This document shows, piece after piece, positions 4,308 to 55,332 of a stretch of DNA of 64,000 nt. Every line of letters starts with the position of its first letter. Position 1 is the stretch's first letter. Below the pieces are notes generated by a model, which saw nothing but the letters and a program-made list of their open reading frames with translations, made no database searches and was not told where the DNA came from. The DNA comes from Candidatus Omnitrophota bacterium. Its GTDB lineage: Bacteria; Omnitrophota; Gorgyraeia; B26-G9. The stretch lies in the NCBI GenBank assembly GCA_043826565.1, contig JBDRPX010000004.1:103604-167603 (forward strand), written 5' to 3'. The position numbers and the translations under genes were made by a program.

Positions 4308-4392
4308 TTAGTGGAAAAAGGCAAACTCGTGGTAACGCGAGGGCGCAAAGCCGTGCACCCCGAAAATTCGGGGCAGGCAGGTTGCCCGATGA
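4308..4392 (+). ncRNA. candidate c-di-GMP-I (GEMM) riboswitch aptamer
   Basis: The segment GGCAAAC-[CUCGUG GUAA CGCGAG]-GG-CGCAAAGCC-[GUGCACCCCG AAAAUU CGGGGCAGGCAGG]-UUGCCCGAUG matches the GEMM-I layout, including the hallmark GGCAAAC and CGCAAAGCC strings. The first helix is capped by a GNRA tetraloop. The 3' UUGCC pairs with the 5' GGCAA to form P1. Confidence 0.6.
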
Positions 4393-33450: not shown

Positions 33451-33457
33451 AAAACAG

Positions 33458-33545: not shown

Positions 33546-33555
33546 GAGTGAATTT

Positions 33556-33774
33556 ATGGCCCGGCAAATAATATTACTATTTATTTTCATGCTTTGTATT
33601 TTAGGCCCCTCAGGCGTAATGGCTATTGCCGCTTTTGCCAGTATCTCGGCCCTGGGCCGGAATCCTTCGGCCGCGCCGAAAATTTTTACGGCGATGACAA
33701 TTACCTTAGTTTTTGCGGAAGCGCTGGCAATTGTGGCAATGCTGATAGTTTATCAGCTGTTTATGATGGGGTAA
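33556..33774 (+). CDS. atpE: F-type ATPase c subunit
   Basis: A 72-aa two-helix hairpin with a GRNP loop and a conserved carboxylate in helix 2 (VFAEALAIVAML). GGAGTG RBS lies upstream. Confidence 0.7.
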   Translation: MARQIILLFIFMLCILGPSGVMAIAAFASISALGRNPSAAPKIFTAMTITLVFAEALAIVAMLIVYQLFMMG

Positions 33775-33904
33775 ACAGGTCGCAGGTTGCAGGTTTCAAG
33801 ATATACTGTAACAGTCATAGTTTTTGAGACTTGTGACATGAGACTTGAGACATGAAGAGTGACTTTTTGTGTAATTATAGGTATAATAAGGACATAAGTA
33901 TAAA

Positions 33905-33990
33905 AAATGAGAATTGATAATTGAAAATTGTAAAAGCCAGTCAGTGATTTTCCAATATTCAACATTCAATACTCAATTTTCAAACTCGAT
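33905..33990 (+). repeat. conserved ~80-bp intergenic inverted-heptamer element, copy B
   Basis: TGAGAATTGATAATTGAAAATTGTAAAAG...TTTTCCAATATTCAACATTCAATACTCAATTTTCAAACTCG lies immediately 5' of the atpF-like start at 34001. Confidence 0.7.
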
Positions 33991-34000
33991 GAGGTGATAT

Positions 34001-34732
34001 ATGGTAGTAGTAAGTATGATATTATTACAGGTTATTATCTTCGGCGGACTGATATTTCTTTTAAGGCATCTTCTTACCCGTAATGTTACGGATGCGACCT
34101 CACATATGCAGGGAATGATCAAAGGGTACTCGGAAAAAGAGGACCAGATAAAAATTAAACTTGAAGAGGCAGAGAAATATTATGCAGAAAAAATAAAAAA
34201 CGCGGATAAAGAAATTGAAAAATTGAAAGATGAATGCAAGAAGCAGATTGATGAAGAAAAAGTGCAGGTATTGGCCCAGGCGCATAAAGAGAGTGAGACG
34301 GTGATAAACAAGGCCAGGCTTACCTGCGAGGCAATAGAAAATGAATTGGAAAGTAAAATTAATCAGAGAGGAATAGAAAAAGCCGGAGAGCTTATTTGCC
34401 AGGTGCTTTCGCCGGAACTTTGCCAGATAATTCATACGACCTGGGTAGAATCATTAATTGAAAGCGGATTCGCCACAATGGAGTGGCTGAAGGTACCGGA
34501 AGCTGTAAACGTGGCCAAGGTTTCCACGGCATTTGCTTTAACTAAAACACAGAAAGAGACTTTACAGAAAAAACTTGATATCAAATTAGAGAGAGAAATT
34601 AAAATAGAAGAAAAGGTAAGTGAAAAGCTTGTTGCCGGGATGATTATTAATCTGGGCAGCTTGGTTTTAGACGGGAGTTTTGTTTCCAAGATCCGGGAGG
34701 TTGTGCGTGAGTCTACAGCAGATGAAAGTTAA
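34001..34732 (+). CDS. F-type ATPase b-like subunit with a delta(OSCP)-like C-terminal motif (possible b/delta fusion)
   Basis: N-terminal TM helix, then a long Lys/Glu-rich coiled coil. The C-terminus VAGMIINLGSLVLDGSFVSKIREVV resembles the delta-subunit C-terminal motif. GAGGTG RBS lies upstream. Confidence 0.45.
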   Translation: MVVVSMILLQVIIFGGLIFLLRHLLTRNVTDATSHMQGMIKGYSEKEDQIKIKLEEAEKYYAEKIKNADKEIEKLKDECKKQIDEEKVQVLAQAHKESETVINKARLTCEAIENELESKINQRGIEKAGELICQVLSPELCQIIHTTWVESLIESGFATMEWLKVPEAVNVAKVSTAFALTKTQKETLQKKLDIKLEREIKIEEKVSEKLVAGMIINLGSLVLDGSFVSKIREVVRESTADES

Positions 34733-36188
34733 GCTAGCTCAAGAAATAAAATTTAATGTCCGGGAAATCGGCAAGGTTAAATCTGTTCGTGAATTTATTG
34801 TCCGGGCAATAGATATGCCCTCATGTATAAACGGACAGATTGTTGAGTTTGATAACGGATTGCCCGGAATGGTGATGGGGTTTACGGAAAATGAGGTTCA
34901 GATTTTAGTGCTGGGGCCTAAAGCTCAGATCCGGGCCGGTGATCGGGTGTATAGTAAAGGCCGGTTTCTTGCTCTTCCGGTAGGAGATGCTTTTGTCGGA
35001 AGAATCGTAAATGCTTTGTGTGAACCGGTCGATAATAAAGGACCGATAAATGCGCGGGAAAATTATCCGGTATTTAGAGAGGCCCCCGGAGTTATGGAAA
35101 GGCTTCCGGTAGAAAGGACATTAGAATCCGGAACACGTCTTATTGATACAATGATTCCTTTGGCCAAGGGACAGCGTCAGCTTTTAATCGGAGACCGGCA
35201 GACCGGCAAGACAACAATTGCGATAGACGCGATATTAAATCAAAAGGACAAAGATGTAATTTGTATCTATTGCTCGATCGGAAAAACATATTCCAGCCTG
35301 GAGAAATTAGTTGCTTTATTGCGTGAAAAAGGCGCTATGGATTACTCAATTGTTGTCAGCGGGATAGCCTCTGCTTCGGTGGGAGAACAGTATTTAGCGC
35401 CGTATACGGCTTGTATGCTTGGTGAGTATTTTATGTTTAACGGCAAAGATGTATTAGTTGTTTTTGATGACCTGACCAGGCATGCCTGGACTTACCGGCA
35501 GATATCCCTGCTTATGGATAGAGCTCCGGGAAGAGAAGCGTATCCCGGAGATATCTTTTATACGCATTCCCAGCTTATGGAAAGAGCCGGACAGATGAAT
35601 GAAGCTTTAAGCGGCGGTTCAATGTCTTTTTTTCCGATAGTGGAAACTTTACAAGGTGATGTTACCGGTTATATACCGACTAATCTCATATCTATGACTG
35701 ACGGGCAGATTTATTTAAGCACCGCTTTGGTAAACAAAGGATTTATGCCGGCGGTTGATGTCGGTCTTTCGGTTTCGCGTATTGGCAGTAAATCGCAATG
35801 GCCGGCTTTGAAGGAACCCAGCCGCAGCCTGCGGCTTGATTTTTTGCAATATCAAAAATTGCAGGAGATGACGCAGTTAAGAACCAGTGATCTTTCTGAA
35901 GATGCGGCGAGAAAATTAAAAAGAGGCGCGGCCATAACACAATTGCTGATCCAGGATAAGAATGATCCGGTGACCATGGAAAGAGAAGTTTGTGAAATGT
36001 ATGCGTTTGTCCGGGGAGTTCTGGATGACTTTACTCCTTTGGAAATAGATAAGTTTAAAGAAGAGTTTTATAAAAAAATTGTAGAAGTAGCTCCGGATCT
36101 GCCGAAACGTTTGCGCGAAACACAGGTGCTCATGGATGAGAGTATGATGAATTTGGAAGAGGGGATTGGTATTTACTTCCCCAGCTAG
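34722..36188 (+). CDS. atpA: F-type ATPase alpha subunit
   Basis: GDRQTGKTT P-loop and alpha-specific regions (LLIGDRQTGKTTIAIDAILNQK, AYPGDIFYTHSQLMERA). It overlaps the preceding gene by 11 nt. Confidence 0.85.
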   Translation: MKVKLAQEIKFNVREIGKVKSVREFIVRAIDMPSCINGQIVEFDNGLPGMVMGFTENEVQILVLGPKAQIRAGDRVYSKGRFLALPVGDAFVGRIVNALCEPVDNKGPINARENYPVFREAPGVMERLPVERTLESGTRLIDTMIPLAKGQRQLLIGDRQTGKTTIAIDAILNQKDKDVICIYCSIGKTYSSLEKLVALLREKGAMDYSIVVSGIASASVGEQYLAPYTACMLGEYFMFNGKDVLVVFDDLTRHAWTYRQISLLMDRAPGREAYPGDIFYTHSQLMERAGQMNEALSGGSMSFFPIVETLQGDVTGYIPTNLISMTDGQIYLSTALVNKGFMPAVDVGLSVSRIGSKSQWPALKEPSRSLRLDFLQYQKLQEMTQLRTSDLSEDAARKLKRGAAITQLLIQDKNDPVTMEREVCEMYAFVRGVLDDFTPLEIDKFKEEFYKKIVEVAPDLPKRLRETQVLMDESMMNLEEGIGIYFPS

Positions 36189-36393
36189 TATTATGAGTAA
36201 AAAGATTTTTTAAATTACAATATACAATTTTCAAATTAAAAATAAGTAGAATCTTTAGGATGTTTTATTACACTTTGTGGAATTATTTAAGTGATTTTGA
36301 TTTGTATATTGGAATTTGGTTGTAATTTGAGATTTGTAATTTTTGTTTATTCTTCTTACTTGGGATGTACTGTTATTTAAGGGGCTAATTAGA

Positions 36394-37236
36394 ATGGGTG
36401 CGATAGCAAAGCTCAAAGATGATATGAATTTTTATCGGTCCTTAGGAGGACTTATCGAGCTTTTGAAAATGATCGCGATCACCCATTATCATAATTTGGA
36501 AAAAAAACTGGAAACTTATGAGGAATATCTTAAGGTGATCGCCGGGTTTTTCTCCTGGCTGGATATGCAAAAGACAAGCCATCCCTTTATGCGCAGCTCG
36601 GATAAACCTACCGGGATTGTGGCGATCACTTCTGACGGCGGGCTTTTAGGCGGTTATAATGCGCTGATTATGAACGAAGCTATGCGTCAGAGACAGGAAG
36701 AAGACGGTAAACTGATTATTGTCGGTAAACGCGGTAAGCTTTATGTTGAAAAACAGAAAATAGTGTATGCTGTTTTTCCCGGGATAACTAATGCTGGCCG
36801 TTTAGAGCAGGCATTAAAATTAAGGGATTATCTGGTAGAGCAGGCATTAAAAGGGAATTTGGGGAAAATAAAAATTGTTTTTTCTAACCCCATTTCTTTT
36901 ACTTTACAGCGTGTGGAAACGATACAGCTTTTACCTTTTGTGCAGAAAATTCGGAGACCGCCTAAATTAGAGGTCAAAGATGTTATTTTTGAGTCGGACT
37001 TTGCCGGATTGGCAGAATATTTGATACATTTATGGATGGGGCAGAGAGTTTTTGAAATCCTTGGCTTAAGTCAGTTGTCCGAGCAGGCCGCGCGGTTTAT
37101 GCATTTGGAGGTTTGTACCCAAAGGATAAAGGAAATGGATCAAAAGCTTAAATTTAAATATTTTCGGGCGCGGCATGAGATTGTTGACCAGAATATGCGG
37201 GAGCTTTTTTCCGCGAGGATTATGAATGCGCAATAA
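36394..37236 (+). CDS. atpG: F-type ATPase gamma subunit (divergent)
   Basis: Its position between alpha and beta and its size fit gamma; the N-terminal helix is IAKLKDDMNFYRSLGGLIELLKMIAITHY. The longer ORF from 36343 adds a hydrophobic prefix with no RBS. Confidence 0.55.
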   Translation: MGAIAKLKDDMNFYRSLGGLIELLKMIAITHYHNLEKKLETYEEYLKVIAGFFSWLDMQKTSHPFMRSSDKPTGIVAITSDGGLLGGYNALIMNEAMRQRQEEDGKLIIVGKRGKLYVEKQKIVYAVFPGITNAGRLEQALKLRDYLVEQALKGNLGKIKIVFSNPISFTLQRVETIQLLPFVQKIRRPPKLEVKDVIFESDFAGLAEYLIHLWMGQRVFEILGLSQLSEQAARFMHLEVCTQRIKEMDQKLKFKYFRARHEIVDQNMRELFSARIMNAQ

Positions 37237-38641
37237 AATAAAAAATAAAGATGATAAAAAAAACACGGTTGGAAAAGTGATCTCCGTGCAGGGGCCGGTT
37301 GTGGATATAAAGTTTCCCCAACAGGAAGATGTTCCGAATGTTTTTGATCTTATTATCACCTATACTGTTGACGGACAAAAGGTGAGTTTGGAAGTTGCCG
37401 AACATTTGATTGGAAATGTCGCCCGGTGTATTTCCCTTAATTCGACTTTGAACATTCAAAGACATGCCGACGCGTTTGTGCCCGGCGGCGGGATTGAGGT
37501 TCCGGTCGGCGATGAGATGTATTCCCGGCTTATTAATGTTGTCGGCGAGCCGATAGATAAAAAGGGGCCGATTAATTCCACGGAAACAAGGCCGATTCGC
37601 ACAGCGTCCGCAGGAACAAAGATCAGTAAAAACAGTGACGAGCGAGGAACAGAACTTTTAGAAACCGGGATTAAGATTATTGACCTTTTATTTCCTTTGG
37701 TAAAGGGAAGTAAAAACGGGATTCTCGGCGGTGCGGCTATGGGGAAAAGTGTTCTTACTCTGGAAATAATCCAGCATATTGTTAAACGTCATCAGGGTTC
37801 TTGTGTGTTTACCGGAGCCGGAGAGCGTATTCGTGAAGGTAATGAATTATATTTCGAATTGGAGAAGCATAATATTCTGCCGAAAATGAAAATGGTTTTT
37901 GGACAGATGAATGAACCTCCCGGAGCTCGTTATGCAGTAGCGATGACCGGGATAACCTTAGCCGAAAGTATTCAGCGTCAAAACAAAGATGTACTTTTAT
38001 TCATTGATAATGTATTTCGTTTTCTTCAGGCCGGGCAGGAAATATCTACGCTGCTGGGCCGGGTTCCGTCGGAAACCGGATATCAGCCGACATTGTTTTC
38101 CGAAGCTGCGGATTTTCATGAACGTATACGTTCACAACAGGAATACGGCGGGTCGATTACCTCGATTGAAGCCGTATATGTTCCGGCAGATGACTTAACT
38201 GATCCGGCGGTAGTTGCGATATTTAGTTTTCTGGATTCGCTTATTGTTCTTTCTCGTGAACGGGTACAGATGGGGCTGTATCCGGCAATAGATCCGCTTC
38301 TATCAGCGTGTAATAACCTGGATACCGATATTGTCGGGAAATATCATTATGGAATTGCTCAGGATGTATTGCGTGTTTTTCAGCGTTATGAAGAACTTAG
38401 AAAGATAGTATTAGTTGTCGGTATTGATGAGCTTTCTTCTGCGGACCGTTTGACCTATGAACGAGCGCTTAAACTTCAGAATTTTCTTACCCAGCCGTTT
38501 TCTGTCGCGGAATCTTATACCGGAAGAAGAGGGGTGTATGTTACGGTTGACCAGACACTGAGCGGGTGCAAAAGAATCATGTCCGGAGATTTTGATAAAC
38601 AGAATGAAGGGGATTTTTATATGATGGGAGCATTGGCCTGA
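37226..38641 (+). CDS. atpD: F-type ATPase beta subunit
   Basis: Beta-subunit architecture with a divergent P-loop GGAAMGKSV (canonical GGAGVGKTV). The DELSEED region is replaced by DELSSAD. It overlaps atpG by 11 nt. Confidence 0.8.
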   Translation: MRNKIKNKDDKKNTVGKVISVQGPVVDIKFPQQEDVPNVFDLIITYTVDGQKVSLEVAEHLIGNVARCISLNSTLNIQRHADAFVPGGGIEVPVGDEMYSRLINVVGEPIDKKGPINSTETRPIRTASAGTKISKNSDERGTELLETGIKIIDLLFPLVKGSKNGILGGAAMGKSVLTLEIIQHIVKRHQGSCVFTGAGERIREGNELYFELEKHNILPKMKMVFGQMNEPPGARYAVAMTGITLAESIQRQNKDVLLFIDNVFRFLQAGQEISTLLGRVPSETGYQPTLFSEAADFHERIRSQQEYGGSITSIEAVYVPADDLTDPAVVAIFSFLDSLIVLSRERVQMGLYPAIDPLLSACNNLDTDIVGKYHYGIAQDVLRVFQRYEELRKIVLVVGIDELSSADRLTYERALKLQNFLTQPFSVAESYTGRRGVYVTVDQTLSGCKRIMSGDFDKQNEGDFYMMGALA

Positions 38642-38648: not shown

Positions 38649-38677
38649 TTGACAAAATTATTTATCAATGCAATAAT
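38649..38677 (+). promoter_or_regulatory. possible sigma70 promoter for the gspE-pilZ operon
   Basis: TTGACA at 38649-38654, a 17-nt spacer, then AATAAT at 38672-38677 preceded by TGC (extended -10-like). Confidence 0.3.
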
Positions 38678-38749: not shown

Positions 38750-40933
38750 ATGGGTAAAAATACTGATGCAATGGTTGTTCAATTGTTAATTGAGCATGAA
38801 ATTCTGGATAAGAAAGAGATTCAGGCTTGTTTTAAGGAAGCTGAAAAAAAGAATAGTTCACCGATACATATTATCGCCGCCCGCAGTAAAACCCCGGAAA
38901 AAAAGCTTTTAGAAATTATTGCTAAAAAACTTCAAATAGAATGTATAAATTTGAAAACCATAGAAATAGATGCCAATGCGCTTAAAAAGGTTCCGGTCAA
39001 AGTTTCCTCCTATTATAAATTTGTTCCGATTCGTTTAGAAAATCGTGTATTGACCATTGCCGTAGCTTACCCGCTGGAGGTAAGGATGCTGGATGAAATC
39101 AGAACGCATCTGGGATTTAATATTGAAATGGTATTGGTTCGGGAAGAAGACGTTCTGGAAATGCTCAAAAATTACTATGGGTTAGGCGCGGAAACAGTTG
39201 AAAAGATTATTGCCCAAAAGACGTATGATTCTCCGACGGAGAAAGTAAAGGAAGATGTTGTCGATGACCTGGAAGCTCTTAGCGGTGCCGCGTCGGTAAT
39301 TCAGCTGGTAAATCAGATTATTTTAGAGTCCTATAAAAAAAGAGCGACAGATATTCACATTGAACCGTACCGGAATAAAGTGCGGTTAAGATACCGTATT
39401 GACGGCGTGCTTTATGAATCTAAGGTTTCTCCGGAAGTTAAGAATTTTCTTACTCCCATACTTTCCCGAATTAAATTGATGTCTAATTTAAATATTGTCG
39501 AGCGGCGTTTGCCGCAGGACGGACGGGCAGTAGTAAAAGTCCAGGATCAGACTCTTGACTTGAGAGTATCGTTTATCCCGACACCTTATGGGGAAAGCGT
39601 GGTCATTAGAATATTACCGGCGGCAATGCTTTTTGGATTGGAGAGGCTGGGGCTTACGGAGTCTGAACATGAGTGTTTAAACGAATTAATTCAAAAGCCG
39701 AATGGTATTGTTTTTCTGACCGGGCCGACCGGAAGCGGAAAGACGACTACATTATATGCTTGTCTTTCATGTATTAATACCGATAAACGTAAAATAATCA
39801 CCATTGAAGATCCCATAGAGTATGAACTTGAAGGCATAACTCAAATACAGATAGCTCAGGCGGTCGGGCTTGATTTTGCGCGGGGATTGCGCAGTATGCT
39901 GCGCCATGATCCCGATGTCATGATGGTTGGGGAGGTTCGGGATCTAGAAACTGCGGAAATTGCGATCAGGGTTGCGCTTACCGGACATTTAGTATTTTCC
40001 ACATTACATACTAATGATGCGGCCAGCGGTATTACCAGACTTGTGGATATCGGTGTTGAGCCGTATCTTGTAGCTTCCAGTGTCGAGGCTTTTATCGCGC
40101 AGCGTTTAGTAAGAATGATTTGTCCTGCTTGCCGGGAGGAAGATTTAGAGATTGCCGATAGTATAAGGAGACAGATCTCCCAGGATTTGGGATATGATAA
40201 TTCTCAAGAAATTAAAGTTTTTCGCGGTAAGGGTTGTCAGGAATGTAATTTTAGCGGGTATTACGGCCGAACCGCTATTTATGAAATACTAATGCTTAAT
40301 GAGGCGCTAAGGGAATTGGTTTTGCATAAATCTTCCAGTGATGAGATCAAGAGGATGGCGATGGCTAATGGAATGAGGACATTGCGCCAGAGCGGCTGGT
40401 TAAAGGTGCTTGAAGGAGTAACCACTCCGGAGGAAATATTGCGGGTTACTCAAGCAGATAAATCTGTTTCTAAAAAAATATCAGAAAAGAAAACTTCCGC
40501 CAGTGAGATTATGGAAATTGCTAAAGAGACATTACAAAAACATATTGCTCCCAAAAAAAAGGAATTTAATCCCGCGGATAGACGTGTGTATGAGCGCCTG
40601 GATAACAGAGTGTATGTGCGCTATACAATATTTAAAGCCGAAAAGAAAAAAAATGTCGAAGGTGAGTATGAAGCAGTACAAGTGGCAGTAACAAGTAATA
40701 TCAGTGCTGGAGGATTACTATTTAACGCGGTGGAAAATCTAGCGATAGGGCTGATAATTGACCTTACGCTGGAATTGCCTGATGAGGGTCCGGTGCAATG
40801 TCTGTCCCGGGTGGTTCGGGTTGAGGAAAGAGTGCCTAATAAAGATTATGAGATCGCGATATGTTTTCTTGATCTGCCCAGCTCGGAACGGGCACGTCTT
40901 AATAGGTTTGTTTTACGCGACATAAAAAAATGA
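38750..40933 (+). CDS. gspE: GspE/PilB-family secretion ATPase with a C-terminal PilZ domain
   Basis: N-terminal GSPII_E N-domain; Walker A LTGPTGSGKTTT; tetracysteine CPACREED...GKGCQECNFSGY. The C-terminal ~120 aa carry the PilZ motifs RRVYER and NISAGG. Confidence 0.8.
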   Translation: MGKNTDAMVVQLLIEHEILDKKEIQACFKEAEKKNSSPIHIIAARSKTPEKKLLEIIAKKLQIECINLKTIEIDANALKKVPVKVSSYYKFVPIRLENRVLTIAVAYPLEVRMLDEIRTHLGFNIEMVLVREEDVLEMLKNYYGLGAETVEKIIAQKTYDSPTEKVKEDVVDDLEALSGAASVIQLVNQIILESYKKRATDIHIEPYRNKVRLRYRIDGVLYESKVSPEVKNFLTPILSRIKLMSNLNIVERRLPQDGRAVVKVQDQTLDLRVSFIPTPYGESVVIRILPAAMLFGLERLGLTESEHECLNELIQKPNGIVFLTGPTGSGKTTTLYACLSCINTDKRKIITIEDPIEYELEGITQIQIAQAVGLDFARGLRSMLRHDPDVMMVGEVRDLETAEIAIRVALTGHLVFSTLHTNDAASGITRLVDIGVEPYLVASSVEAFIAQRLVRMICPACREEDLEIADSIRRQISQDLGYDNSQEIKVFRGKGCQECNFSGYYGRTAIYEILMLNEALRELVLHKSSSDEIKRMAMANGMRTLRQSGWLKVLEGVTTPEEILRVTQADKSVSKKISEKKTSASEIMEIAKETLQKHIAPKKKEFNPADRRVYERLDNRVYVRYTIFKAEKKKNVEGEYEAVQVAVTSNISAGGLLFNAVENLAIGLIIDLTLELPDEGPVQCLSRVVRVEERVPNKDYEIAICFLDLPSSERARLNRFVLRDIKK

Positions 40934-40956
40934 TTTTTAATCAGTAAGAAAGAATT

Positions 40957-42180
40957 ATGGGTGTATTTAAATATCGAGCTAAAAGAGGACCTAAAGATAT
41001 TGTGGAATCGGTAATTAGCGCTGATTCCAAAGAGGAAGCTATTGAAAAAATCAGCCAGATGGGATATTTGCCCATAAAAGTAGAACCTTCAGATGCTTCG
41101 GCTGCTGGGGAGACTGCAAGAAGCCGGTTTTCTTTTAAAGGAATCTCTTCAAAGCGCTTGACCATACTGACACGGCAATTGTCTATTTTACTTAAGTCCG
41201 GAGTACCGATATTAAACGGATTGATGATCCTTGCCGACCAGGCGGAAAATGCTTATATGAAGTCAGTGTTTACGGAAATTTATGATGAAATAAAAAAAGG
41301 AAAAACATTATCCGGGGCCTTGGATTGTTATCCGCGCTTATTCTCTCCTTTATATGTAGCGCTTGTCCGTGCCGGAGAAGACAGCGGAACATTGGAAGAG
41401 GCCTTGTTAAGGATTGCCAGTTACCGGTATAAGCAGGAACAGATCATTTCTTCGGTAAAAACAGCACTTACTTATCCTATCCTCATGGCGATTGTCGGTG
41501 CGGGTACGGTTATATTTATGCTTACATTTGTCATGCCTAAGCTTCTGACTATTTTTACGCGGTTAGGACAGAATTTGCCTTTACCGACAAAAGTACTTAT
41601 ATCTATAAGTACTTTTTTAAGACAGGGTTGGTTTTGGGTATTGTTTTTTCTTTTGTGTGTGGGGATCGTACTTTTTTTTAAATACGGAATGCGCTCAAAG
41701 AGAGAAAAAATTATTTTAAGCGCGGTGAAACTGCGCCTGCCTATTTTTGGAAAAATTTTTTTAAAAACGGAATTAGCCCGCTTTAGCCGAACTCTGGAGA
41801 TTTTATTAAAAAGCGGGATTCAGCTGCTGCCGTCAATAAGGATCAGTATCCCTACTTTAGATAACGAGGTTATCCGGGAAGAATTAAGGAAAGGTTATAA
41901 AGATATTGAGCGGGGAGAATCAGTGGGCGCGACAATGAAGCGTTCTAAAGTATTCCCTCAGTTTATGGGTAATTTAATCAGTGTCGGCGAACAATCCGGC
42001 AGGTTAGAAGAAGTATTGCAGGAATTAGCCGATAGTTATGAAAACGAGACCGATGAAGCCGTAAAGATAATGACTAATCTTTTAGAGCCGATGATGATCC
42101 TGCTGATGGGAATAGTTATCGGGGGAATAATCATCTCTATGCTTCTGCCGGTATTTCAGATCAATATGATGATTCAGTAG
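40957..42180 (+). CDS. gspF: GspF/PilC-family inner-membrane platform protein
   Basis: Two T2SSF repeats with the expected TM pattern (SGVPILNGL..., LEPMMILLMGIVIGGIIISM). Confidence 0.8.
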   Translation: MGVFKYRAKRGPKDIVESVISADSKEEAIEKISQMGYLPIKVEPSDASAAGETARSRFSFKGISSKRLTILTRQLSILLKSGVPILNGLMILADQAENAYMKSVFTEIYDEIKKGKTLSGALDCYPRLFSPLYVALVRAGEDSGTLEEALLRIASYRYKQEQIISSVKTALTYPILMAIVGAGTVIFMLTFVMPKLLTIFTRLGQNLPLPTKVLISISTFLRQGWFWVLFFLLCVGIVLFFKYGMRSKREKIILSAVKLRLPIFGKIFLKTELARFSRTLEILLKSGIQLLPSIRISIPTLDNEVIREELRKGYKDIERGESVGATMKRSKVFPQFMGNLISVGEQSGRLEEVLQELADSYENETDEAVKIMTNLLEPMMILLMGIVIGGIIISMLLPVFQINMMIQ

Positions 42181-42244
42181 CGAAGTTACAGGTTACAAGT
42201 GACAGGTGACAAGTTGTAATAAATAAATCAAGAAAAAATCAATA

Positions 42245-43099
42245 ATGCGAATTAAATTGTTCGAATATATTTCTTTTGGAGTGATACTATTTTTATTCAC
42301 ATGTTCTTTGGCAGGAGCGGAAGAATGGGCGGAGGTAAAAGGGGATCATTTTATTGTCTATTTCCAAGGTCCGAATAAAAATTTTGCCAGCCAGGCTGCC
42401 CGAAAAGCTGAGGAATACTACCTGTCTATAGCGCAAGACCTGGGATATGTACGGTATTCCGGTTTTTGGAAATGGGAGAACAGAGTAAGAATTTTTATTT
42501 ATCCGGACCGCGATAAATATTTGGAATCTACCGGCCGGCCGCAGTGGTCCCGCGGTATGGCTGATTATACGAAAAAGCAGATAGTAAGTTATATGTGGAG
42601 CGAGAATTTTTTGGAAGTTCTTTTAGCTCACGAGATCGGTCATTTGATTTTTCGTGACTTTGTCGGTTTTAAAGGAGAAGTTCCTCTTTGGCTTGATGAA
42701 GGCGTCGCGCAATGGGAAGAAAAACAATTTCGGATTCCCCGAAAAATGGCCATGAAAAATATGCTTGAAGAAAACAAAATGTTTTCTTTTTTGGATATGA
42801 TGAAACTTGAAATCAAAAATATCGATGAAGAAGATCCGATATTTATTACCTCATCATTTAACGGGAAGAATGAAGTTAAAATTGTCGAGGGTAAAACACT
42901 TATTGAGATGTACTATTTGCAGTCATTCTCATTAGTGGGATTTCTGATGGAAGAATATCGCGGAGAAAAATTCATCGCTTTTTGCCGGCAGTTAAGAGAC
43001 GGAAAATCTGTGCAGGAGGCTTTGGGGCATACTTACCCTACCGATTTGAGGACATTTGAAGATTTAGAAGAAAAGTGGAGAAAATACATACTAAAATAA
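42245..43099 (+). CDS. secreted peptidase-MA-like (HExxH...EG..Q.E) domain protein
   Basis: Signal peptide ISFGVILFLFTCSLAGA. AHEIGH followed by WLDEGVAQWEE resembles the zinc-binding signature of the Peptidase_MA_2/DUF1570 family. Confidence 0.5.
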   Translation: MRIKLFEYISFGVILFLFTCSLAGAEEWAEVKGDHFIVYFQGPNKNFASQAARKAEEYYLSIAQDLGYVRYSGFWKWENRVRIFIYPDRDKYLESTGRPQWSRGMADYTKKQIVSYMWSENFLEVLLAHEIGHLIFRDFVGFKGEVPLWLDEGVAQWEEKQFRIPRKMAMKNMLEENKMFSFLDMMKLEIKNIDEEDPIFITSSFNGKNEVKIVEGKTLIEMYYLQSFSLVGFLMEEYRGEKFIAFCRQLRDGKSVQEALGHTYPTDLRTFEDLEEKWRKYILK

Positions 43100-43165
43100 A
43101 TCAAAAATCAAAAGTCAAAAGGCAAAATTACAATGCAAAATTCAAAAATAAAAAGATAAATGATA
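43093..43165 (+). repeat. degenerate heptamer array (AANTCAA-like, ~10 units) upstream of gspG
   Basis: The sequence reads AAATCAA AAATCAA AAGTCAA AAGGCAA AATTACA ATGCAAA ATTCAAA AATAAAA AGATAAA TGATAAA. Confidence 0.55.
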
Positions 43166-43184
43166 AAAAGACTGGAGGAAAGTC

Positions 43185-43589
43185 ATGAAGAGAAATAAGG
43201 GATTTACATTAATTGAGTTGATGCTGGTGGTAATAATAATCAGTGCGCTTGCGGCCATGGTTCTGCCGCGCTTAGCGGGCCGTTCAGAACAGGCTCGGAT
43301 AGCGGCGGCCAGTGCCGATGTGCGGGCTAATATCGCTACCGGGTTAAAACTCTTTGAATTGGATAATGGGGGATTTCCGACGACTTCCGAAGGCTTGCAG
43401 GCGCTTTTGACCAAACCTTCATCGGGAATAAACTGGAGCGGGCCTTATCTGGAAAAAGAGCCGGTTGATCCCTGGGGCAGGCTTTATGAGTATAAATCTC
43501 CGGGAGAACACAGACCCCAGGATTATGATTTATATTCTTTGGGAAAAGACGGCGTTGAAAGCGCGGATGATGTTAATAATTGGGAGTAA
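43185..43589 (+). CDS. gspG: T2SS major pseudopilin GspG
   Basis: Prepilin leader MKRNKG|FTLIELM with Glu at +5. The C-terminal signature is DPWGRLYEYKSPGEHRPQDYDLYSLGKDG. GGAGGA RBS lies upstream. Confidence 0.8.
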   Translation: MKRNKGFTLIELMLVVIIISALAAMVLPRLAGRSEQARIAAASADVRANIATGLKLFELDNGGFPTTSEGLQALLTKPSSGINWSGPYLEKEPVDPWGRLYEYKSPGEHRPQDYDLYSLGKDGVESADDVNNWE

Positions 43590-44061
43590 AAACAGAAGTC
43601 AGAGGTCAGAAATCAGAGGTCAGAAGAAAAAAAATCTGTCATCTGTTATCTGTCATCCGACGTCTGGTTTTACCTTAGTCGAGGTGCTGGTTGCGGTGGT
43701 GGTTTTGTCCGTAGGATTAGTCATTATATATGAATCATTCTTAATGTCGCTCGATGTCATAAATTTGTTCTTCAATCGGTTAAATGCGCAGTTTTTCATA
43801 AGTGAAAAAATTGCTCAGGTTCAGCATGGATTCGACCAGCCGGCGGGAACTTTTTTCTCTCCAAATCAAAACGGAATAGTTACTTTAAATAACCGTCTGT
43901 TTAATTGGCAAATAGATATGAATTTGCTTGATGTCCGAGGGGAACTTTATAAGCTTGATACTGTTGTTTCCTGGAAAGAGGGATCTAAAGATAGTGTGAT
44001 CCGCCGGTCTACGCTGGTTAAAAAATATTTTTCTAATTCCTGCCCGGAGAAAAAAAGGTAA
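43567..44061 (+). CDS. minor pseudopilin (GspH/I-like); start uncertain
   Basis: Class III signal G|FTLVEVLVAVVVLSVGLVII. The only in-frame ATGs are at 43567/43570, overlapping the gspG 3' end. That start implies a 34-aa basic leader encoded through a heptamer repeat. The track's start at 43465 would overlap gspG by 125 nt. Confidence 0.45.
   Translation: MMLIIGSKNRSQRSEIRGQKKKNLSSVICHPTSGFTLVEVLVAVVVLSVGLVIIYESFLMSLDVINLFFNRLNAQFFISEKIAQVQHGFDQPAGTFFSPNQNGIVTLNNRLFNWQIDMNLLDVRGELYKLDTVVSWKEGSKDSVIRRSTLVKKYFSNSCPEKKR
43591..43672 (+). repeat. inverted heptamer arrays (CAGARNT x5, an A-run, then TCTGTYA x3-5) at the gspG / minor-pseudopilin junction
   Basis: The sequence reads CAGAAGT CAGAGGT CAGAAAT CAGAGGT CAGAAGA AAAAAAA TCTGTCA TCTGTTA TCTGTCA TCCGACG TCTGGTT. 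Confidence 0.6.
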
Positions 44062-44069
44062 TCGTGTTT

Positions 44070-44690
44070 ATGGGAATAAATAATAAAAAAGGTTTTACTT
44101 TTCTGGAAATGCTCATGTCCGCGGCCATGACCGCGGTTTTAGCCGTGACTTTATATGGAATGCTGGCTAATGGTTTAAAAGTATGGACTGTAGTTAATCG
44201 AGAGTCTCCGCAATTAGATAGAAGTTTATTTTTTGAAAGTATTACGGAAGAATTAAGTAATAGTTTTGAGTTTGCCGGTATCGAATTTACGGGAGATCAA
44301 ATCAGTTTTTCTTTTCCTGCTTTGATGAAGGTTTCGGGAAGAGAAGACGGATTTTATGAAGAAATAGGTTTGGTTAGATATTTTTATGATAAGAATGATA
44401 AAAATATAAACAAACAGCAAGTCAGTTATCAGCAATTACACCAAATGAAGAAGACAGAGTCCCGGGAAAAAATGAAGGAAGTTGAGTCTTTTTCCTTAAG
44501 CTATTATTTTTATGACAAAGAAAAAGATACATTTTTCTGGTCTTCCGTATGGCCTCCGGAGATGCCGGAACCAACTAAAACTATAGGCCTTCCTCAGGCG
44601 GTGCATATAGAGATGTCTTTTAAAGACGGAGTCAAAATTGAGAAGTGCAGCAGGATTATTACGATTCCTTCCGGAGGATTGGTTGGTTGA
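44070..44690 (+). CDS. minor pseudopilin (GspJ-like)
   Basis: Leader MGINNKKG|FTFLEMLMSAAMTAVLAV with Glu at +5. ATG 44070 is preferred over GTG 44064. Confidence 0.55.
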   Translation: MGINNKKGFTFLEMLMSAAMTAVLAVTLYGMLANGLKVWTVVNRESPQLDRSLFFESITEELSNSFEFAGIEFTGDQISFSFPALMKVSGREDGFYEEIGLVRYFYDKNDKNINKQQVSYQQLHQMKKTESREKMKEVESFSLSYYFYDKEKDTFFWSSVWPPEMPEPTKTIGLPQAVHIEMSFKDGVKIEKCSRIITIPSGGLVG

Positions 44691-44770
44691 AATGATGATT
44701 ATTGAGAGTTGATAATTGAAAATTGTAAAAATATTTGATGTTTTTCCAATAGACAACACTCAACGGTCAA
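44688..44770 (+). repeat. conserved ~80-bp intergenic inverted-heptamer element, copy C
   Basis: TGAGAGTTGATAATTGAAAATTGTAAAAAT...TTTTTCCAATAGACAACACTCAACGGTCAATTTTC lies upstream of the gspK-like start at 44810. Confidence 0.65.
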
Positions 44771-44809
44771 TTTTCTTATTAACTATTTTAGGAAAAATTA
44801 TTTAAGCAT

Positions 44810-45910
44810 ATGAAAAGGTTACAGTTTAACGATAATGGTAGCGTACTAATATTAGTGTTATGGATGCTTGGACTTTTAACGGTTTTTGCGGTATACTTAG
44901 GAATTGGTGTCAGGCAAAAGTTAGACTTTCTAAATCGCTTGGAAACGCGGAATAAGCTGAGTTTGATCGCGGAAGCCGGGGTCAAAAAAGCGATTGCCGA
45001 GATCGGGAATATGGATGTCGAACGTTCGGTCATATCACTAGGTGAGCCGATCTTTAATAATGAAGCAGTTTTTTCGCAAAGTAAGATCGCAGAAGGATGG
45101 TTTACCGTAGGATATAATTGTCGTCCGGATGATTTTCATGCTTATGGCAGTGTGGGCGATGAGAAGGAAATGATGTTCGGGGTGCGGGATGCGGCCGGAA
45201 ATATAAATCTCAATTTTGCGAATCGTAATGAACTTATCCGGTTATTACAGTCAGCGGCGGGAGTGGAAGCGTATATGGCTGATCAAATCGCTTCCAGTAT
45301 TGTTGACTGGAGAGATAGAGACAGTATGTCCGCGCCTAATGGGGCAGAGGATAATTATTATCAAGGGTTAAAAGAACCTTATGATTGTAAAGATGATTTA
45401 TTTACAACACAGGAAGAATTGTGTTATGTCCGGGGGATGACCCGGGGAATTTTTGAAAAAATTGAACCGTATATTACGGTTTTTGGTTCCGGGCAGGTGA
45501 ATATTAATACCGCGCCGAAAATAGTGCTTAACAGTTTAGGCTTAAGTAATAGACTGGTGACAAAGATTCTGTTGTTCCGCTGCGGTGAGGATAAGATTCC
45601 GGCAACTGCTGATGACCGTGTTTTTAACAGCTCTTCTTCGGTTATGGCCGAACTAAGTCAGATGTATTCTCTGACTCCGAGCGAAGCGGCAGAACTAAGT
45701 AATTTGGTTTCTCAAGGGAGAATTACGGTAAATTCAGGTGTTTTTTTGATTCAAAGCACAGCTTTTCTTGAACGCAAAAATGGCAAATGTAAAATTGATT
45801 GTGTTCTTGAAAAAAATCTGGTACCGGAAACTATAAGAGCAGGCTGGATTTTAAGTTGGCGCATAAGGTATTTAAATCAAGAGGAAACTTACAAACTGGA
45901 TAATATATGA
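44810..45910 (+). CDS. GspK-like minor pseudopilin
   Basis: N-terminal GSVLILVLWMLGLLTVFA has no Glu at +5, as in GspK. Two NINxN.A helix-hairpin-helix-like segments (NINLNFANRNELIRLLQ, NINTAPKIVLNSLGL). Confidence 0.55.
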   Translation: MKRLQFNDNGSVLILVLWMLGLLTVFAVYLGIGVRQKLDFLNRLETRNKLSLIAEAGVKKAIAEIGNMDVERSVISLGEPIFNNEAVFSQSKIAEGWFTVGYNCRPDDFHAYGSVGDEKEMMFGVRDAAGNINLNFANRNELIRLLQSAAGVEAYMADQIASSIVDWRDRDSMSAPNGAEDNYYQGLKEPYDCKDDLFTTQEELCYVRGMTRGIFEKIEPYITVFGSGQVNINTAPKIVLNSLGLSNRLVTKILLFRCGEDKIPATADDRVFNSSSSVMAELSQMYSLTPSEAAELSNLVSQGRITVNSGVFLIQSTAFLERKNGKCKIDCVLEKNLVPETIRAGWILSWRIRYLNQEETYKLDNI

Positions 45911-47340
45911 TTAGACAATCAGATATAGTTGGATTTGATATCAGCGGAGATGAATTGGTTTTTTGTTATGTGAAAAATTCCGGTACAAAAAAAGAAATCC
46001 TTAGCCTGCTGACATATAATATAAAGGAATCATCTTCTGATGATATCGCCGGAATGGTAAAAAAGATTTTTAAGGATCTAAAAATAAAAAATCCTTATCT
46101 TGTCAATGTTATTCCCCTTAATCTGGCGATTACAAAAAATTTGGAAATTCCTTCGCTGGACCCTAAAGAAATAAAGGAAATTGTGGATTTACAGTCCGGA
46201 CGGCAGACGCCGTATGCACGGGAAGAGATCATTGTCGATTATATAAATCATGGTGAGTACCGTCAAAGCTATACAAAGATACTATTGGTGATTGTTCCCC
46301 GGGAGGCGATAAAAAAGCAATTTGAAGTGATGACTAAAGCCGGAGTTAATATCGAAAAGATCCTGTTTGCTCCGGAAGGCTTAAGCGCGGTATGTACGCA
46401 GCAGATAAAAGCAGAGATACAGGATAACCCGATAGGGATTATTCATATCGATACGAATTTTACTGATTTTATTATTTCCCTAAAAGGTGTTCCGATTTTT
46501 ACCCGAAGTATTCCCATAGAATCCGGACAAATAATCAATGAAAAGGAAAAATTCGTGGAAGAGTTAAAAAAATCGGTGGAGACATATTATTCCGAAGATA
46601 TAGATAAATCACCGCATGTGCTGATCTTGACGGGTATTACCGAGCAATCAAAGGAATTGGAAATTTCCTTGACCACGCAATTGCATATCCCGGTAAAAAC
46701 TATCCCATATTTTAGCCAATTACCTCTTAATGCTAATATTTCCACGATGCCTTCAATAGCGCGGCATCTTTCATTTTTTAATGTTGCTTCGGTGCTTTTG
46801 TTCCCGCAAGATATGAAAGTCAATCTTATCCCTGAAGAAATAAAATTGAAACGTTCTTTTGAGGAGAGGGCTTATGAATTGATAAAAATGGGCGTATATG
46901 TAATTTGTCTGCTGATTATGGTTGGCGGGTTCTTTCTGGGGAGGGTATATTTTAGGGGCAGATATCTCGAGCGCCTGAAGGAGCAGTATCAGACGACTAA
47001 TCAGGAAGCCCAGGTTTTAGAGAAATCAATGGAGAAGATCCGGATGATTAAACATTATCTTAAAAGCCGGGGGTATCCATTGCAGGTTTTGGCGGCTGTC
47101 TATGATGTGCTGCCCAACCGGATTTTACTTGATAGTATTAAGATGGATAAAGATGGTAATCTATATTTAAAAGGCACGGCCAGAGCAATGTCGGATGTAT
47201 TTGCTTTTGTGGTTGCTTTAGAAGATTCTTCTCATTTTAGTAATGTGCAGACTAACTATACGACTTCCCGAAAAGAAGACGGCGAGGATTGGGCGGATTT
47301 CGGTATTGTCTGTCTTTTGGAACAAAATATTATTAACTGA
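45907..47340 (+). CDS. GspL-like assembly protein (PilM-like cytoplasmic domain + TM + PilN-like periplasmic domain)
   Basis: Actin-like N-domain (IVGFDISGDELVFCYV), a single TM helix (MGVYVICLLIMVGGFFLG) and a periplasmic C-domain. A 4-nt ATGA overlap links it to the upstream gene. Confidence 0.5.
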   Translation: MIRQSDIVGFDISGDELVFCYVKNSGTKKEILSLLTYNIKESSSDDIAGMVKKIFKDLKIKNPYLVNVIPLNLAITKNLEIPSLDPKEIKEIVDLQSGRQTPYAREEIIVDYINHGEYRQSYTKILLVIVPREAIKKQFEVMTKAGVNIEKILFAPEGLSAVCTQQIKAEIQDNPIGIIHIDTNFTDFIISLKGVPIFTRSIPIESGQIINEKEKFVEELKKSVETYYSEDIDKSPHVLILTGITEQSKELEISLTTQLHIPVKTIPYFSQLPLNANISTMPSIARHLSFFNVASVLLFPQDMKVNLIPEEIKLKRSFEERAYELIKMGVYVICLLIMVGGFFLGRVYFRGRYLERLKEQYQTTNQEAQVLEKSMEKIRMIKHYLKSRGYPLQVLAAVYDVLPNRILLDSIKMDKDGNLYLKGTARAMSDVFAFVVALEDSSHFSNVQTNYTTSRKEDGEDWADFGIVCLLEQNIIN

Positions 47341-47357
47341 TGTAAACCGAGGAAGAG

Positions 47358-47945: not shown

Positions 47946-48103
47946 AATTCTCTGATACAAAAAGATAAAAAAGAGTTTACCGTTACTCCTGCCCGCCAAT
48001 CTTTATGGCGGAAAGATTGGCGAGGTTTAATTCGCAGACGGACAAACCCCTATGATTTGCAATTCTGCAAATCATCTGCTCATTAAAGAAAGAGATTAAC
48101 AAA

Positions 48104-53625: not shown

Positions 53626-55332
53626 GTGAGAGTGGGATTAAGATTTAAAACAATAGGTGATGTCTTAAAAGAGCGCGGTTTGATTGCGGAAGAAGAATTG
53701 CGCGAGGGGCTTGAACATCAAAAAGTGAGCGGCCTTTCTTTAGGGCGCATTCTGATTAATCTGGGATATATTACCGAAAGGGATCTCTTAAATGCTTTAG
53801 GAGTCCAGGCGAATATGGATCCGATTGATCCTGCTCATATACAGATACCGAAGGAAGTCCTTGATAAAATTCCCGGGGCAATTGCTAAACTATATAACAT
53901 CGTACCGGTTGCTTTTGAGGGGAATACTTTGGTTATTGCAACTTCCGAACCGCTGAATTTCAGTATCTTTGATGATTTAAGGTTTATGTTCAACTTTAAT
54001 ATCAAAGGTAAGGTGGCTACTTATACAAATATTTCCCGGGCGATCAAAAAATATTACGGCAGTGAAGCGGATAGTGTAGACGAAATATTTTCCGAGATCA
54101 GTAAAAAAATCCCTAACCTGCTTGAAGGCGATGAAAAAATTGAAAGTATCGAGGAAATATCTTCGCAGCTTCCGATCGTTAAGCTTATTAACATTATTCT
54201 TATTCAGGCAATAAAAAAGAAAGCTTCCGATATCCATTTTGAACCTTTTCAGGATGAATTTAAGATCAGGTATCGGCTTGACGGGATGCTCTATGATATT
54301 GTATCGCCTCCGAAAAAACTGCATCTGGCGATTACTTCCCGAATTAAGGTCATGGCTAATTTAAATATAGCGGAAACGCGTCTTCCCCAGGACGGCAGGA
54401 TATTTGTGCGTATTGGCGGAAGAATGGTTGACCTGAGAGTTTCTACTTTGCCGACTATCTTTGGAGAAAGCGTAGTTATCCGCATTTTAGATAAAGCGAC
54501 GGTTCAGCTTTCTTTGCATGATTTAGGATTTGAGAATGATGTGCGGAAGAAAGTAGAAGGGCTGATAAAAAAGCCGTACGGGATTATTTTGAGTACCGGG
54601 CCTACCGGCTGCGGAAAAACCACGACACAGTATTCCTGTTTAAGTAGTATAAATAATGTTGCGCTGAAAATTATCACGGTTGAGGACCCGGTGGAATTTG
54701 ATTTGTCGGGGCTGGTGCAGGTTTCTGTGCGGCCGAAGATCGATCTTACTTTTCCGGTTGTGCTGCGGCACATTCTCCGGCAAGATCCGGATATTATAAT
54801 GGTCGGGGAAATAAGAGATGCGGAGACCGTACAAATGGCGATCCATGCTTCTTTAACCGGCCATCTGGTTTTTTCTACTCTACACACAAATGACGCGCCC
54901 AGTGCGGTTACCCGTCTTATTGATATGGGAGTTGAACCTTTTCTGATCGCTTCTGCGGTGGAAGCTATTTTGGCGCAGCGTTTGGTAAGGGTTATTTGCC
55001 CGGATTGCAAAAAAGAATATACGCCTACTCAAAAAGAGATAGAGGAATTGAATCTGACAACGGAATTCTGGAAGGGGAAAGCATTTTATTCGGGAACAGG
55101 TTGCGAGAAATGTAATAATACGGGATATAAAGGAAGATCAGGAATTTTTGAACTGATGGTTTTGGATGAAGATATCCGTTCCTTGATTTTAGACAGGGCG
55201 TCTGTGTCGGATCTAAGGAACCAGGCAATTAAAAACGGCATGCGTACTTTACGCGAAGACGGATTGTTGAAAGTTTTTCAGGGGATAACAACTTTAGAAG
55301 AATTAATAAATGTAACGACGGGATACGCATGA
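53626..55332 (+). CDS. second PilB/GspE-family assembly ATPase
   Basis: GTG start abutting the pilT stop. STGPTGCGKTTT; tetracysteine CPDCKKEY...GCEKCNNTGY. Confidence 0.8.
   Translation: MRVGLRFKTIGDVLKERGLIAEEELREGLEHQKVSGLSLGRILINLGYITERDLLNALGVQANMDPIDPAHIQIPKEVLDKIPGAIAKLYNIVPVAFEGNTLVIATSEPLNFSIFDDLRFMFNFNIKGKVATYTNISRAIKKYYGSEADSVDEIFSEISKKIPNLLEGDEKIESIEEISSQLPIVKLINIILIQAIKKKASDIHFEPFQDEFKIRYRLDGMLYDIVSPPKKLHLAITSRIKVMANLNIAETRLPQDGRIFVRIGGRMVDLRVSTLPTIFGESVVIRILDKATVQLSLHDLGFENDVRKKVEGLIKKPYGIILSTGPTGCGKTTTQYSCLSSINNVALKIITVEDPVEFDLSGLVQVSVRPKIDLTFPVVLRHILRQDPDIIMVGEIRDAETVQMAIHASLTGHLVFSTLHTNDAPSAVTRLIDMGVEPFLIASAVEAILAQRLVRVICPDCKKEYTPTQKEIEELNLTTEFWKGKAFYSGTGCEKCNNTGYKGRSGIFELMVLDEDIRSLILDRASVSDLRNQAIKNGMRTLREDGLLKVFQGITTLEELINVTTGYA

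Follow-up and report, generated by a model that had tools for sequence, protein, structure and literature searches.

A type II secretion-like assembly ATPase of Omnitrophota with a fused C-terminal PilZ domain predicted to bind c-di-GMP

Introduction

The ATPases in the family of type II secretion systems (T2SS), type IV pili (T4P) and type IV secretion systems (T4SS) have a known binding site for cyclic diguanosine monophosphate (c-di-GMP) in their N-terminal MshEN domain (PMC5013675, PMC4624772), and c-di-GMP sensing by these motors has so far been understood either through that site or through PilZ and FimX partners acting in trans. Here we describe E1, an ATPase of this class with a PilZ domain fused to its C-terminus. 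It is encoded in a stretch of 64,000 nucleotides (nt; hereafter, the window) from Candidatus Omnitrophota bacterium (GTDB lineage Bacteria; Omnitrophota; Gorgyraeia; B26-G9), which corresponds to positions 103,604 to 167,603 of the forward strand of contig JBDRPX010000004.1 (GenBank assembly GCA_043826565.1). The reading we prefer, with a probability of roughly 0.7, is that E1 would serve as assembly ATPase to a T2SS-like filament machine and be gated by c-di-GMP through its C-terminal PilZ domain in cis, as judged from sequence comparisons and structure models.

MshE, PilB and PA14_29490 belong to the same ATPase class as E1, share its MshEN_N-MshEN_C-N2D-CTD layout (CTD, C-terminal domain) and follow the logic proposed here, in that an assembly motor senses c-di-GMP directly. 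E1 differs from the MshE type in that its motif of 2 x 24 residues is degenerate, and in carrying a PilZ beta-barrel at the opposite end of the protein. In Xanthomonas citri, a PilZ-fold module likewise accompanies a PilB-class ATPase whose ND0 sub-domain lacks the c-di-GMP motif, but there a separate PilZ protein without c-di-GMP motifs binds the ND0/ND1 domain of PilB and relays the signal of the FimX EAL domain (PMC8389850). The PilZ domain of E1, by contrast, is joined covalently to the C-terminal end and its binding motifs are intact, so that a FimX-like relay should not be needed; within the window, no separate, non-binding PilZ protein with a GGDEF-EAL relay was found for E1. BcsA, Alg44 and YcgR/MotI provide the precedent for canonical PilZ domains in cis, in which, as in E1, an inter-domain linker leads up to RxxxR and the domain has a C-terminal helix, and they place such a domain on a machine that delivers a surface structure, as is proposed for E1. 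The output domain of E1 differs from theirs in being a hexameric secretion ATPase, a fusion partner that is not among the architectures discussed in the PilZ reviews consulted. Within the same phylum, loci have been described in which giant surface proteins occur with T2SS-like genes, including a gspD/E/F locus, and in which stand-alone small pilZ genes follow the giant genes (West-Roberts et al., 10.1101/2023.11.21.568195); that paper makes no mention of an ATPase-borne PilZ domain or a degenerate MshEN motif, and the terms 'c-di-GMP' and 'riboswitch' have 0 occurrences in it.

Domain organization of E1

The following features of E1 lie upstream of its PilZ domain (window positions; aa, amino acids; ORF, open reading frame). 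The motor motifs were read directly from the sequence.

38750..40933, + strand: E1, MshEN-T2SSE-PilZ fusion ATPase, complete ORF from ATG to TGA, 727 aa
38771..38929, + strand: four-helix sub-domain ND0/MshEN_N, aa 8-60; its double c-di-GMP motif is degenerate
38933..39187, + strand: MshEN_C/ND1 sub-domain, aa 62-146 (Pfam PF05157, 59.9 bits)
39284..40444, + strand: T2SSE motor (N2D and CTD), aa 179-565 (Pfam PF00437, 435.4 bits, profile positions 4-370 of 370)
39722-39745, + strand: Walker A, GPTGSGKT, aa 325-332
39794-39826, + strand: Asp box, IITIEDPIEYE, aa 349-359
39908-39943, + strand: Walker B, DPDVMMVGEVRD, aa 387-398
39983-40015, + strand: His box, GHLVFSTLHTN, aa 412-422
40121-40246, + strand: tetracysteine, CPAC...CQEC, aa 458-499
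40445..40579, + strand: Lys-rich linker, aa 566-610, poorly conserved (family consensus all 'x')

The sequence is 100% identical to an NCBI protein named 'MAG: ATPase, T2SS/T4P/T4SS family [Candidatus Omnitrophota bacterium]' (MAG, metagenome-assembled genome). A first-pass annotation, made by reading the DNA alone, had described a 727-aa ATPase of the GspE/PilB class with Walker boxes and a tetracysteine, and the Pfam domains and the motifs at the positions listed bear this out. The full T2SSE core is present and its catalytic residues are invariant across the aligned family, while C458, C461, C496 and C499, which make up the Zn-binding sub-domain of the CTD, show no variation among 64 aligned homologs. 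Judged by its sequence, the motor is catalytically complete.

The same annotation named the protein GspE, and here only part of the claim stands. The operon does encode pseudopilins of the T2SS type (see below), but E1 scores 569 bits against the NCBIfam GspE equivalog TIGR02533 (cutoff 630.25) and 557 bits against the PilB equivalog TIGR02538 (cutoff 675.65), and since it falls below both, the GspE label is too specific. A sequence search of the PDB places the solved structure of PilB (5zfr, 450 bits) ahead of that of GspE (4pht, 373 bits) among the relatives of the motor.

In an AlphaFold2 (AF2) model of full-length E1, the linker is disordered (predicted local distance difference test score, pLDDT, <50 at residues 574-608), while the PilZ domain and ND0 stay confident. 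The resulting tether of ~35-45 residues joins the CTD straight to the RRxxxR loop of the PilZ domain.

The C-terminal PilZ domain

40580..40915, + strand: canonical PilZ domain, aa 611-722 (Pfam PF07238, 42.8 bits, E 7.3e-11, profile positions 2-101 of 102)
40580-40597, + strand: RRVYER (RxxxR motif), aa 611-616, in the N-terminal loop of the PilZ domain
40697-40714, + strand: NISAGG ((D/N)hSxxG motif), aa 650-655, on the PilZ barrel
40880-40930, + strand: C-terminal helix of the PilZ domain (AF2 model)

The extra C-terminal domain was confirmed as PilZ by its Pfam score, which lies far above the gathering cutoff for PF07238 (22.5 bits). Both signatures that had been read from the sequence, RRVYER and NISAGG, are present, although the canonical form of the second is (D/N)xSxxG rather than the [DN]xSxGG first given (NISAGG fits both). 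In a MAFFT alignment of 120 homologs, R612 is found in all 120 and R616 in 119; N or D occupies position 650 in 119, the following hydrophobic position is I, L, V or M in 120/120, S652 is kept in 116 and G655 in every member (120/120). At position 611, 103/120 have Arg or Lys. On the evidence of this alignment, conservation of the two motifs is far beyond chance and reflects strong purifying selection.

An AF2 model of residues 590-727, calculated with the homolog alignment as input, gave a pLDDT of 85.1 (barrel >90) and a predicted template modelling score (pTM) of 0.72. It comprises strands E33-38, 55-62, 66-71, 80-86, 93-106 and 110-117, followed by helix H122-137 (numbering of that model). 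When the model was compared with the PDB by Foldseek, the best ~44 matches were all PilZ domains, mostly in c-di-GMP-bound structures, with a probability of 1.00 and TM-scores of up to 0.78 (normalised by target length); they include MotI/DgrA, YcgR, Alg44, BcsA, MrkH, MapZ, PA0012 and PlzA. PilZ structures surfaced by this fold search only, a PDB sequence search with the C-terminal 165 aa of E1 having returned nothing meaningful.

Regulation of PilB by a PilZ-fold protein that does not bind c-di-GMP is well documented, and the domain in E1 might accordingly be pictured as a ligand-independent adaptor (a 'type II' PilZ, as in Xanthomonas and Pseudomonas) that recruits a FimX-like or other partner in cis. 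XC1028 (3dsg), a non-binding Xanthomonas PilZ protein, does appear among the fold matches, though only at rank 50, and the list is headed by ligand-bound canonical domains. In non-binding PilZ proteins, moreover, RxxxR and (D/N)xSxxG are missing and the N-terminus is rearranged, whereas the E1 family keeps both motifs near-invariant, and we give the adaptor a slim chance. The hidden Markov model match, the motifs and the predicted fold together support assignment of the E1 PilZ domain to the canonical type, for which c-di-GMP binding is predicted. PilZ domains in fusion proteins are reported to invariably retain c-di-GMP binding (Galperin and Chou, 10.1101/814665).

The C-terminal helix of the domain is basic and conserved (R714, R716, L717, N718, K/R719, Y/F720). 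Two cysteines on adjacent barrel strands, C684 (40799-40801) and C705 (40862-40864), are also kept, in 118/120 and 112/120 members, respectively. Such a near-invariant cysteine pair is not known as a general feature of PilZ domains; it may have a structural role, act in redox chemistry or bind metal.

The MshEN site is degenerate in E1 and intact in a neighbouring ATPase

E1 had at first been set apart from ATPases controlled through MshEN-type N-terminal domains. It also has such a domain, and the distinction survives in so far as the c-di-GMP motif of that domain is degenerate. The fold itself is well supported, by the PF05157 match and by the AF2 model, which shows four helices (pLDDT ~88-93) and then an alpha/beta unit, and PDB sequence matches to this region are N-domains of PilB, including that of X. 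citri (7lkm), along with 5htl (E 0.069).

The register of the motif in E1 was taken from a HMMER alignment to Myxococcus xanthus PilB (3jc8), and the pattern examined was two tandem 24-residue copies of RLGxxL(L/V/I)xxG(L/V/I/F)(L/V/I)xxxxLxxxLxxQ with 5-residue spacing. In the first half-motif of the E1 family, the Arg position is I/L/V, the Gly position S/Y/A and the Gln position A; in the second, the corresponding residues are L/P, Q/S/P and K/E. The hydrophobic heptad pattern is still present. None of the 120 family members (0/120) contains the motif in either its strict or its relaxed form, and the curated NCBIfam model of the MshEN c-di-GMP motif (NF053729, cutoff 38 bits) has no match in the E1 N-domain even at E<=10.

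Two more ATPases are encoded downstream in the window, in a T4P-like cluster. One of these, E2 (50722-52380), scores 15 bits against NF053729. The other, a paralog of E1, is listed below.

53626..55332, + strand: E3, PilB-like ATPase without a PilZ domain, 568 aa

E3 scores 57.3 and 61.5 bits against NF053729 at residues 10-61, above the cutoff, and has a near-canonical double MshE motif consisting of TIGDVLKERGLIAEEELREGLEHQ, the spacer KVSGL and SLGRILINLGYITERDLLNALGVQ. It is a plausible true member of the MshE-type c-di-GMP-binding ATPases, with a site predicted from its sequence. The same segment of DNA thus encodes one motor, E3, whose MshEN site appears functional, and another, E1, with a decayed site plus a PilZ domain, and because the E1 motif is degenerate, we infer that its PilZ domain is a replacement for the MshEN sensor and not an addition to it.

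A sensor with two sites, in which MshEN and PilZ both bind c-di-GMP with two affinities or cooperatively, would be a different outcome. The four-helix ND0 bundle of E1 is retained with high model confidence and hydrophobic heptads, and binding by MshEN involves largely hydrophobic contacts (PMC5013675). Residues pivotal to MshE, namely Arg and Gln in both half-motifs together with those at the Gly positions, are nevertheless replaced throughout the E1 family, NF053729 finds nothing in E1 while E3 and a stand-alone MshEN protein of a related locus (described next) score well above its cutoff, and XpsE and Xanthomonas PilB have comparably degenerate N-domains and do not bind c-di-GMP. We see a small chance that the sensor has two working sites.

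Other fusion loci compared in this study are L001, L003 and L004 (Omnitrophota) and L005 (a MAG contig), with fusions at ~47-61% identity. In L003, a 152-aa MshEN protein with no ATPase domain is encoded directly upstream of the fusion gene (9538-9996), and it scores 55.0 bits against NF053729.

Homologs and distribution

A search of 5.8 billion proteins retrieved at least 120 clusters (at 90% identity) of fusion proteins, 707-761 aa in length and 54-72% identical to E1, each with PF05157, PF00437 and PF07238. They derive from independent NCBI, JGI, ENA and Logan assemblies, and every named homolog among the best 120 is a Candidatus Omnitrophota. The view that a C-terminal PilZ fusion is unusual holds relative to the literature but not within the phylum, where all of the best 120 matches carry it. 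On these sequence data, the MshEN-T2SSE-PilZ layout, together with its synteny (see below), is the rule in Omnitrophota. A further 4 full-length fusions at 47-50% identity also retain RxxxR and (D/N)xSxxG.

This recurrence bears on the trivial explanation that E1 is an artefact, in which adjacent gspE and small pilZ genes were merged in the MAG because a stop codon was lost or the sequence was misread. It is true that L001 and L004 have a small PilZ gene right downstream of gspE, but in both of these loci the small gene coexists with the fusion, and the fusion ORF is continuous, with the same three Pfam domains, in all of the clusters just described. A merged gene is effectively refuted by the recurrence of the continuous ORF across independent assemblies, and the chance of it is next to negligible.

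When a representative library was searched with the PilZ domain alone, the best 150 matches were mostly fragments and small PilZ proteins; 32 had T2SSE similarity, 4 were full-length fusions (those at 47-50% identity) and, of these 4, 1 was named (Omnitrophota). A contig scan with a single C-terminal sequence gave one true relative, L001, and a Synechococcus match (L002) that was rejected as spurious, the similarity being confined to a 51-residue stretch of the ATPase tail.

The fusion architecture is already in public protein databases, where it is domain-annotated under generic names. Our literature searches, which miss most papers in subscription journals, found no published description of a T2SSE-PilZ fusion in cis and yielded trans PilB-PilZ complexes only. 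The cis fusion is a real and new architectural variant among c-di-GMP-controlled secretion ATPases, with ligand binding predicted; it is not conceptually unexpected, given the promiscuity of PilZ domains and the c-di-GMP control of this ATPase family.

Proposed mechanism

In solved canonical PilZ complexes, bound c-di-GMP holds the RRxxxR loop clamped to the barrel. By analogy, c-di-GMP would bind to E1 between the RRxxxR loop and the barrel and clamp the one onto the other, probably as an intercalated dimer, since position 611 is predominantly Arg or Lys. Binding would order and shorten the tether, and so reposition the barrel and the basic C-terminal helix, either toward the hexamer or toward a partner, which could be the degenerate ND0/ND1 of E1 itself, GspF or PilM-N, in view of the PilZ-PilB contact in X. 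citri (PMC8389850) and of helix interactions such as those of MapZ and MrkH, where the C-terminal helix of the PilZ domain is a prime protein-interaction surface (10.1101/814665). The repositioned domain would then change ATPase activity or engagement of the platform. Going by MshE/PilB, BcsA and Alg44, activation at high c-di-GMP appears about twice as likely as inhibition. One messenger could in this way couple secretion or pseudopilus assembly with the giant surface-protein operon, through its riboswitch (see below), and with E3, through its MshEN motif.

Several observations weigh against gating of E1 by c-di-GMP in this manner. The full-length AF2 model has a pTM of 0.53 and fits no fixed arrangement of the domains. 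In 6/120 family members, a single substitution in one PilZ motif causes the combined pattern to fail. The degenerate ND0 of E1 could bind nucleotide in a non-canonical way. No gene for the secretin GspD or for GspC is present within the E1 cluster (38750-48022), and the 64-kb window contains no GGDEF, EAL or HD-GYP gene, so the source of the signal is not seen.

If the mechanism holds, the E1 family would be a natural experiment in which binding of the messenger at either end of the hexamer acts on the ATPase ring, and E1 a compact, single-polypeptide system for structural study of hexamers with and without ligand. It would represent a testable exchange of sensor modules in which the recipient is a secretion motor, one that an uncultured phylum has conserved and that is linked to giant surface proteins.

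The E1 operon and the type of machine

40957..42180, + strand: GspF/PilC-type platform protein (Pfam T2SSF, 205 bits)
42245..43099, + strand: Peptidase_MA_2 protein (Pfam), with a signal-like N-terminus and zincin-like HExxH
43185..45910, + strand: pseudopilin set (Pfam T2SSG, N_methyl, T2SSJ, T2SSK_1st)
43185-43589, + strand: GspG, major pseudopilin (NCBIfam equivalog, 132.2 bits, cutoff 88.85)
43465-44061, + strand: GspI-like (NCBIfam best match, below cutoff)
44064-44690, + strand: GspJ-like (NCBIfam best match, below cutoff)
44810-45910, + strand: GspK-like (NCBIfam best match, below cutoff; Pfam T2SSK_1st, 71 bits)
45907-47340, + strand: PilM-PilN fusion
47358-47900, + strand: PilO/GspM-like protein

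The genes that follow E1 specify a platform protein (368 bits against NCBIfam GspF, under the cutoff of 424) and, as in a classical T2SS, GspG with minor pseudopilins of the I/J/K types. A second filament system begins at E2, which opens the T4P-like cluster; this also encodes PilT, E3, PilC, PilMN, PilO and the sole secretin in the window (60276-62105).

Whether the E1 machine exports or extends is less clear-cut. It may be a true surface pilus, T4P-like and used for adhesion or prey contact, with the PilZ domain gating extension and not export. The greater similarity of E1 to the solved PilB structure (450 bits) than to that of GspE (373 bits), the presence of an ND0, which Vibrio GspE lacks, and the PilM-PilN fusion in place of GspL in a cluster without GspC or GspD all point this way. 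Against it, GspG scores above its equivalog cutoff and is accompanied by GspI/J/K-like minor pseudopilins and a GspM-like protein, and the separate cluster 3 kb downstream already holds PilT, PilC, PilMNO and a secretin. We regard a surface pilus as a real possibility, on which we would not bet. It is compatible with c-di-GMP gating of E1 through PilZ, because the output changes and the sensing mechanism does not, and the label T2SS-like type IV filament machine is defensible.

The Peptidase_MA_2 gene, an unusual one to find in a T2SS or T4P operon, occurs between gspF and gspG in L001, L003 and L004 also; the encoded protein could be cargo or a processing enzyme. In L003, a PAS-PAS-HisKA-HATPase_c sensor kinase gene (14223-16187) has been inserted between the Peptidase_MA gene and gspG, which points to one more regulatory input in this lineage.

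Conserved gene neighbourhood and c-di-GMP riboswitch

4311..4390, + strand: c-di-GMP-I-GGC riboswitch aptamer (Rfam RF03167, 60.1 bits, gathering score 59, full-length)
about 4400-4434, + strand: GC-rich hairpin and U-run after the riboswitch (sequence reading)
4525-5694, + strand: first ORF after the riboswitch, 389 aa, IS200-like Y1 transposase domain
5696-6133, + strand: ORF of 145 aa, no Pfam match, followed by the giant gene
6194-33013, + strand: giant ORF, 8,939 aa, with ~90-aa repeats, ending 5.7 kb upstream of E1
33199-38641, + strand: F-type ATPase operon (epsilon, c, b/delta fusion, alpha, gamma, beta), filling the gap between the giant gene and the T2SS-like operon

The gene order around E1 is shared with its relatives. 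In both L003 and L004, it runs from a giant Kre9_KNH-repeat protein through an F-type ATPase operon, the fusion, GspF, Peptidase_MA and pseudopilins to PilMN and PilO; L001 and L005 match this as far as they are covered, their contigs ending short of the giant gene, and L005 is without the Peptidase_MA gene. In the giant ORF of the window, the N-terminus is signal-like and the C-terminus carries a hydrophobic anchor. Pfam gave no match to the first 500 and last 1,099 residues of this ORF, and the Kre9_KNH matches in the giant genes of the relatives are faint.

In L003 (4609-9530) and L004 (4675-9842), the F-type ATPase operon has the same place, after the giant gene and before the T2SS-like operon, at 55-61% identity. 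ATPase genes lie directly upstream of the fusion in L001 and L005 too, where the whole operon is beyond the reach of the contigs. No gene for an a-subunit was found in the F-type ATPase cluster.

The riboswitch that the first-pass annotation placed at 4308 was recovered by Rfam at 4311-4390, with a score barely over the threshold, and for this GGC variant c-di-GMP is a putative ligand. With it, the window holds three putative types of c-di-GMP receptor, the others being the PilZ domain of E1 and the MshEN site of E3. The further proposal that c-di-GMP is a master signal for surface organelles in this organism is plausible from the sequence, and gains support from E3 as the third receptor type.

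In some relatives, a gene for a ~160-aa protein lies between the fusion and gspF (L004, 12193-12681; L001, 4659-5144), and proteins P0133, P0138, P0145 and P0153 are of the same type. Over its first 44 residues, this protein shares 40-52% identity with the GspF N-terminus (E 1e-7 to 1e-11, by blastp-short alone), and the remainder is a canonical PilZ domain (Pfam ~45 bits), 35-41% identical to the fused one. No description of such an architecture was met in the literature consulted. A tandem duplication of the PilZ-coding 3' end of gspE together with the first ~45 codons of gspF would create such a GspF-N::PilZ chimera. The gene is absent from the window, where E1 and gspF are separated by a gap of 23 bp (40934-40956).

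These neighbours allow a broader scenario, which we put forward tentatively and consider unlikely as a whole. In it, the ancestral MshEN site decayed and the C-terminal PilZ domain took over in cis; the PilZ-gated machine would be dedicated to deploying or secreting the adjacent giant surface protein; c-di-GMP would control a supra-operon for predation or attachment at three layers, namely the giant-gene riboswitch, the PilZ domain of E1 and the MshEN site of the T4P motor; and the GspF-N::PilZ mini-proteins would act as additional c-di-GMP-dependent modulators of the contact between ATPase and platform. Omnitrophota are uncultured, ultra-small bacteria that are suspected of being predatory or host-dependent. 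With the gating proposed for E1, a T2SS-like machine that keeps synteny with their giant surface proteins would come under c-di-GMP control, and c-di-GMP may be a specific signal that triggers their attachment or attack.

Other features of the region

38649..38677, + strand: promoter-like site, TTGACA-17-AATAAT (TG ahead of the -10), within the 108-bp gap between atpD and gspE, ~73 nt before the ATG
47994..48022, + strand: terminator-like hairpin, 11-pair stem, following the last cluster gene
48104-50614, + strand: phosphoglycerate kinase (PGK) and triose-phosphate isomerase (TIM) genes, between the two filament clusters
49321-49788, + strand: extra GspG-like pseudopilin gene, interleaved with the PGK and TIM genes

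The promoter-like site upstream of E1 matches the consensus at 11/12 positions and is among the three best in 17.7 kb, and the stem of the terminator-like hairpin is the longest in the region; both are consensus matches only. Promoter-like sites show no strong enrichment in the region overall (58, compared with 43.7 +/- 6.3 in shuffled sequences). The PGK/pseudopilin/TIM arrangement is conserved in L004 (19737-22187).

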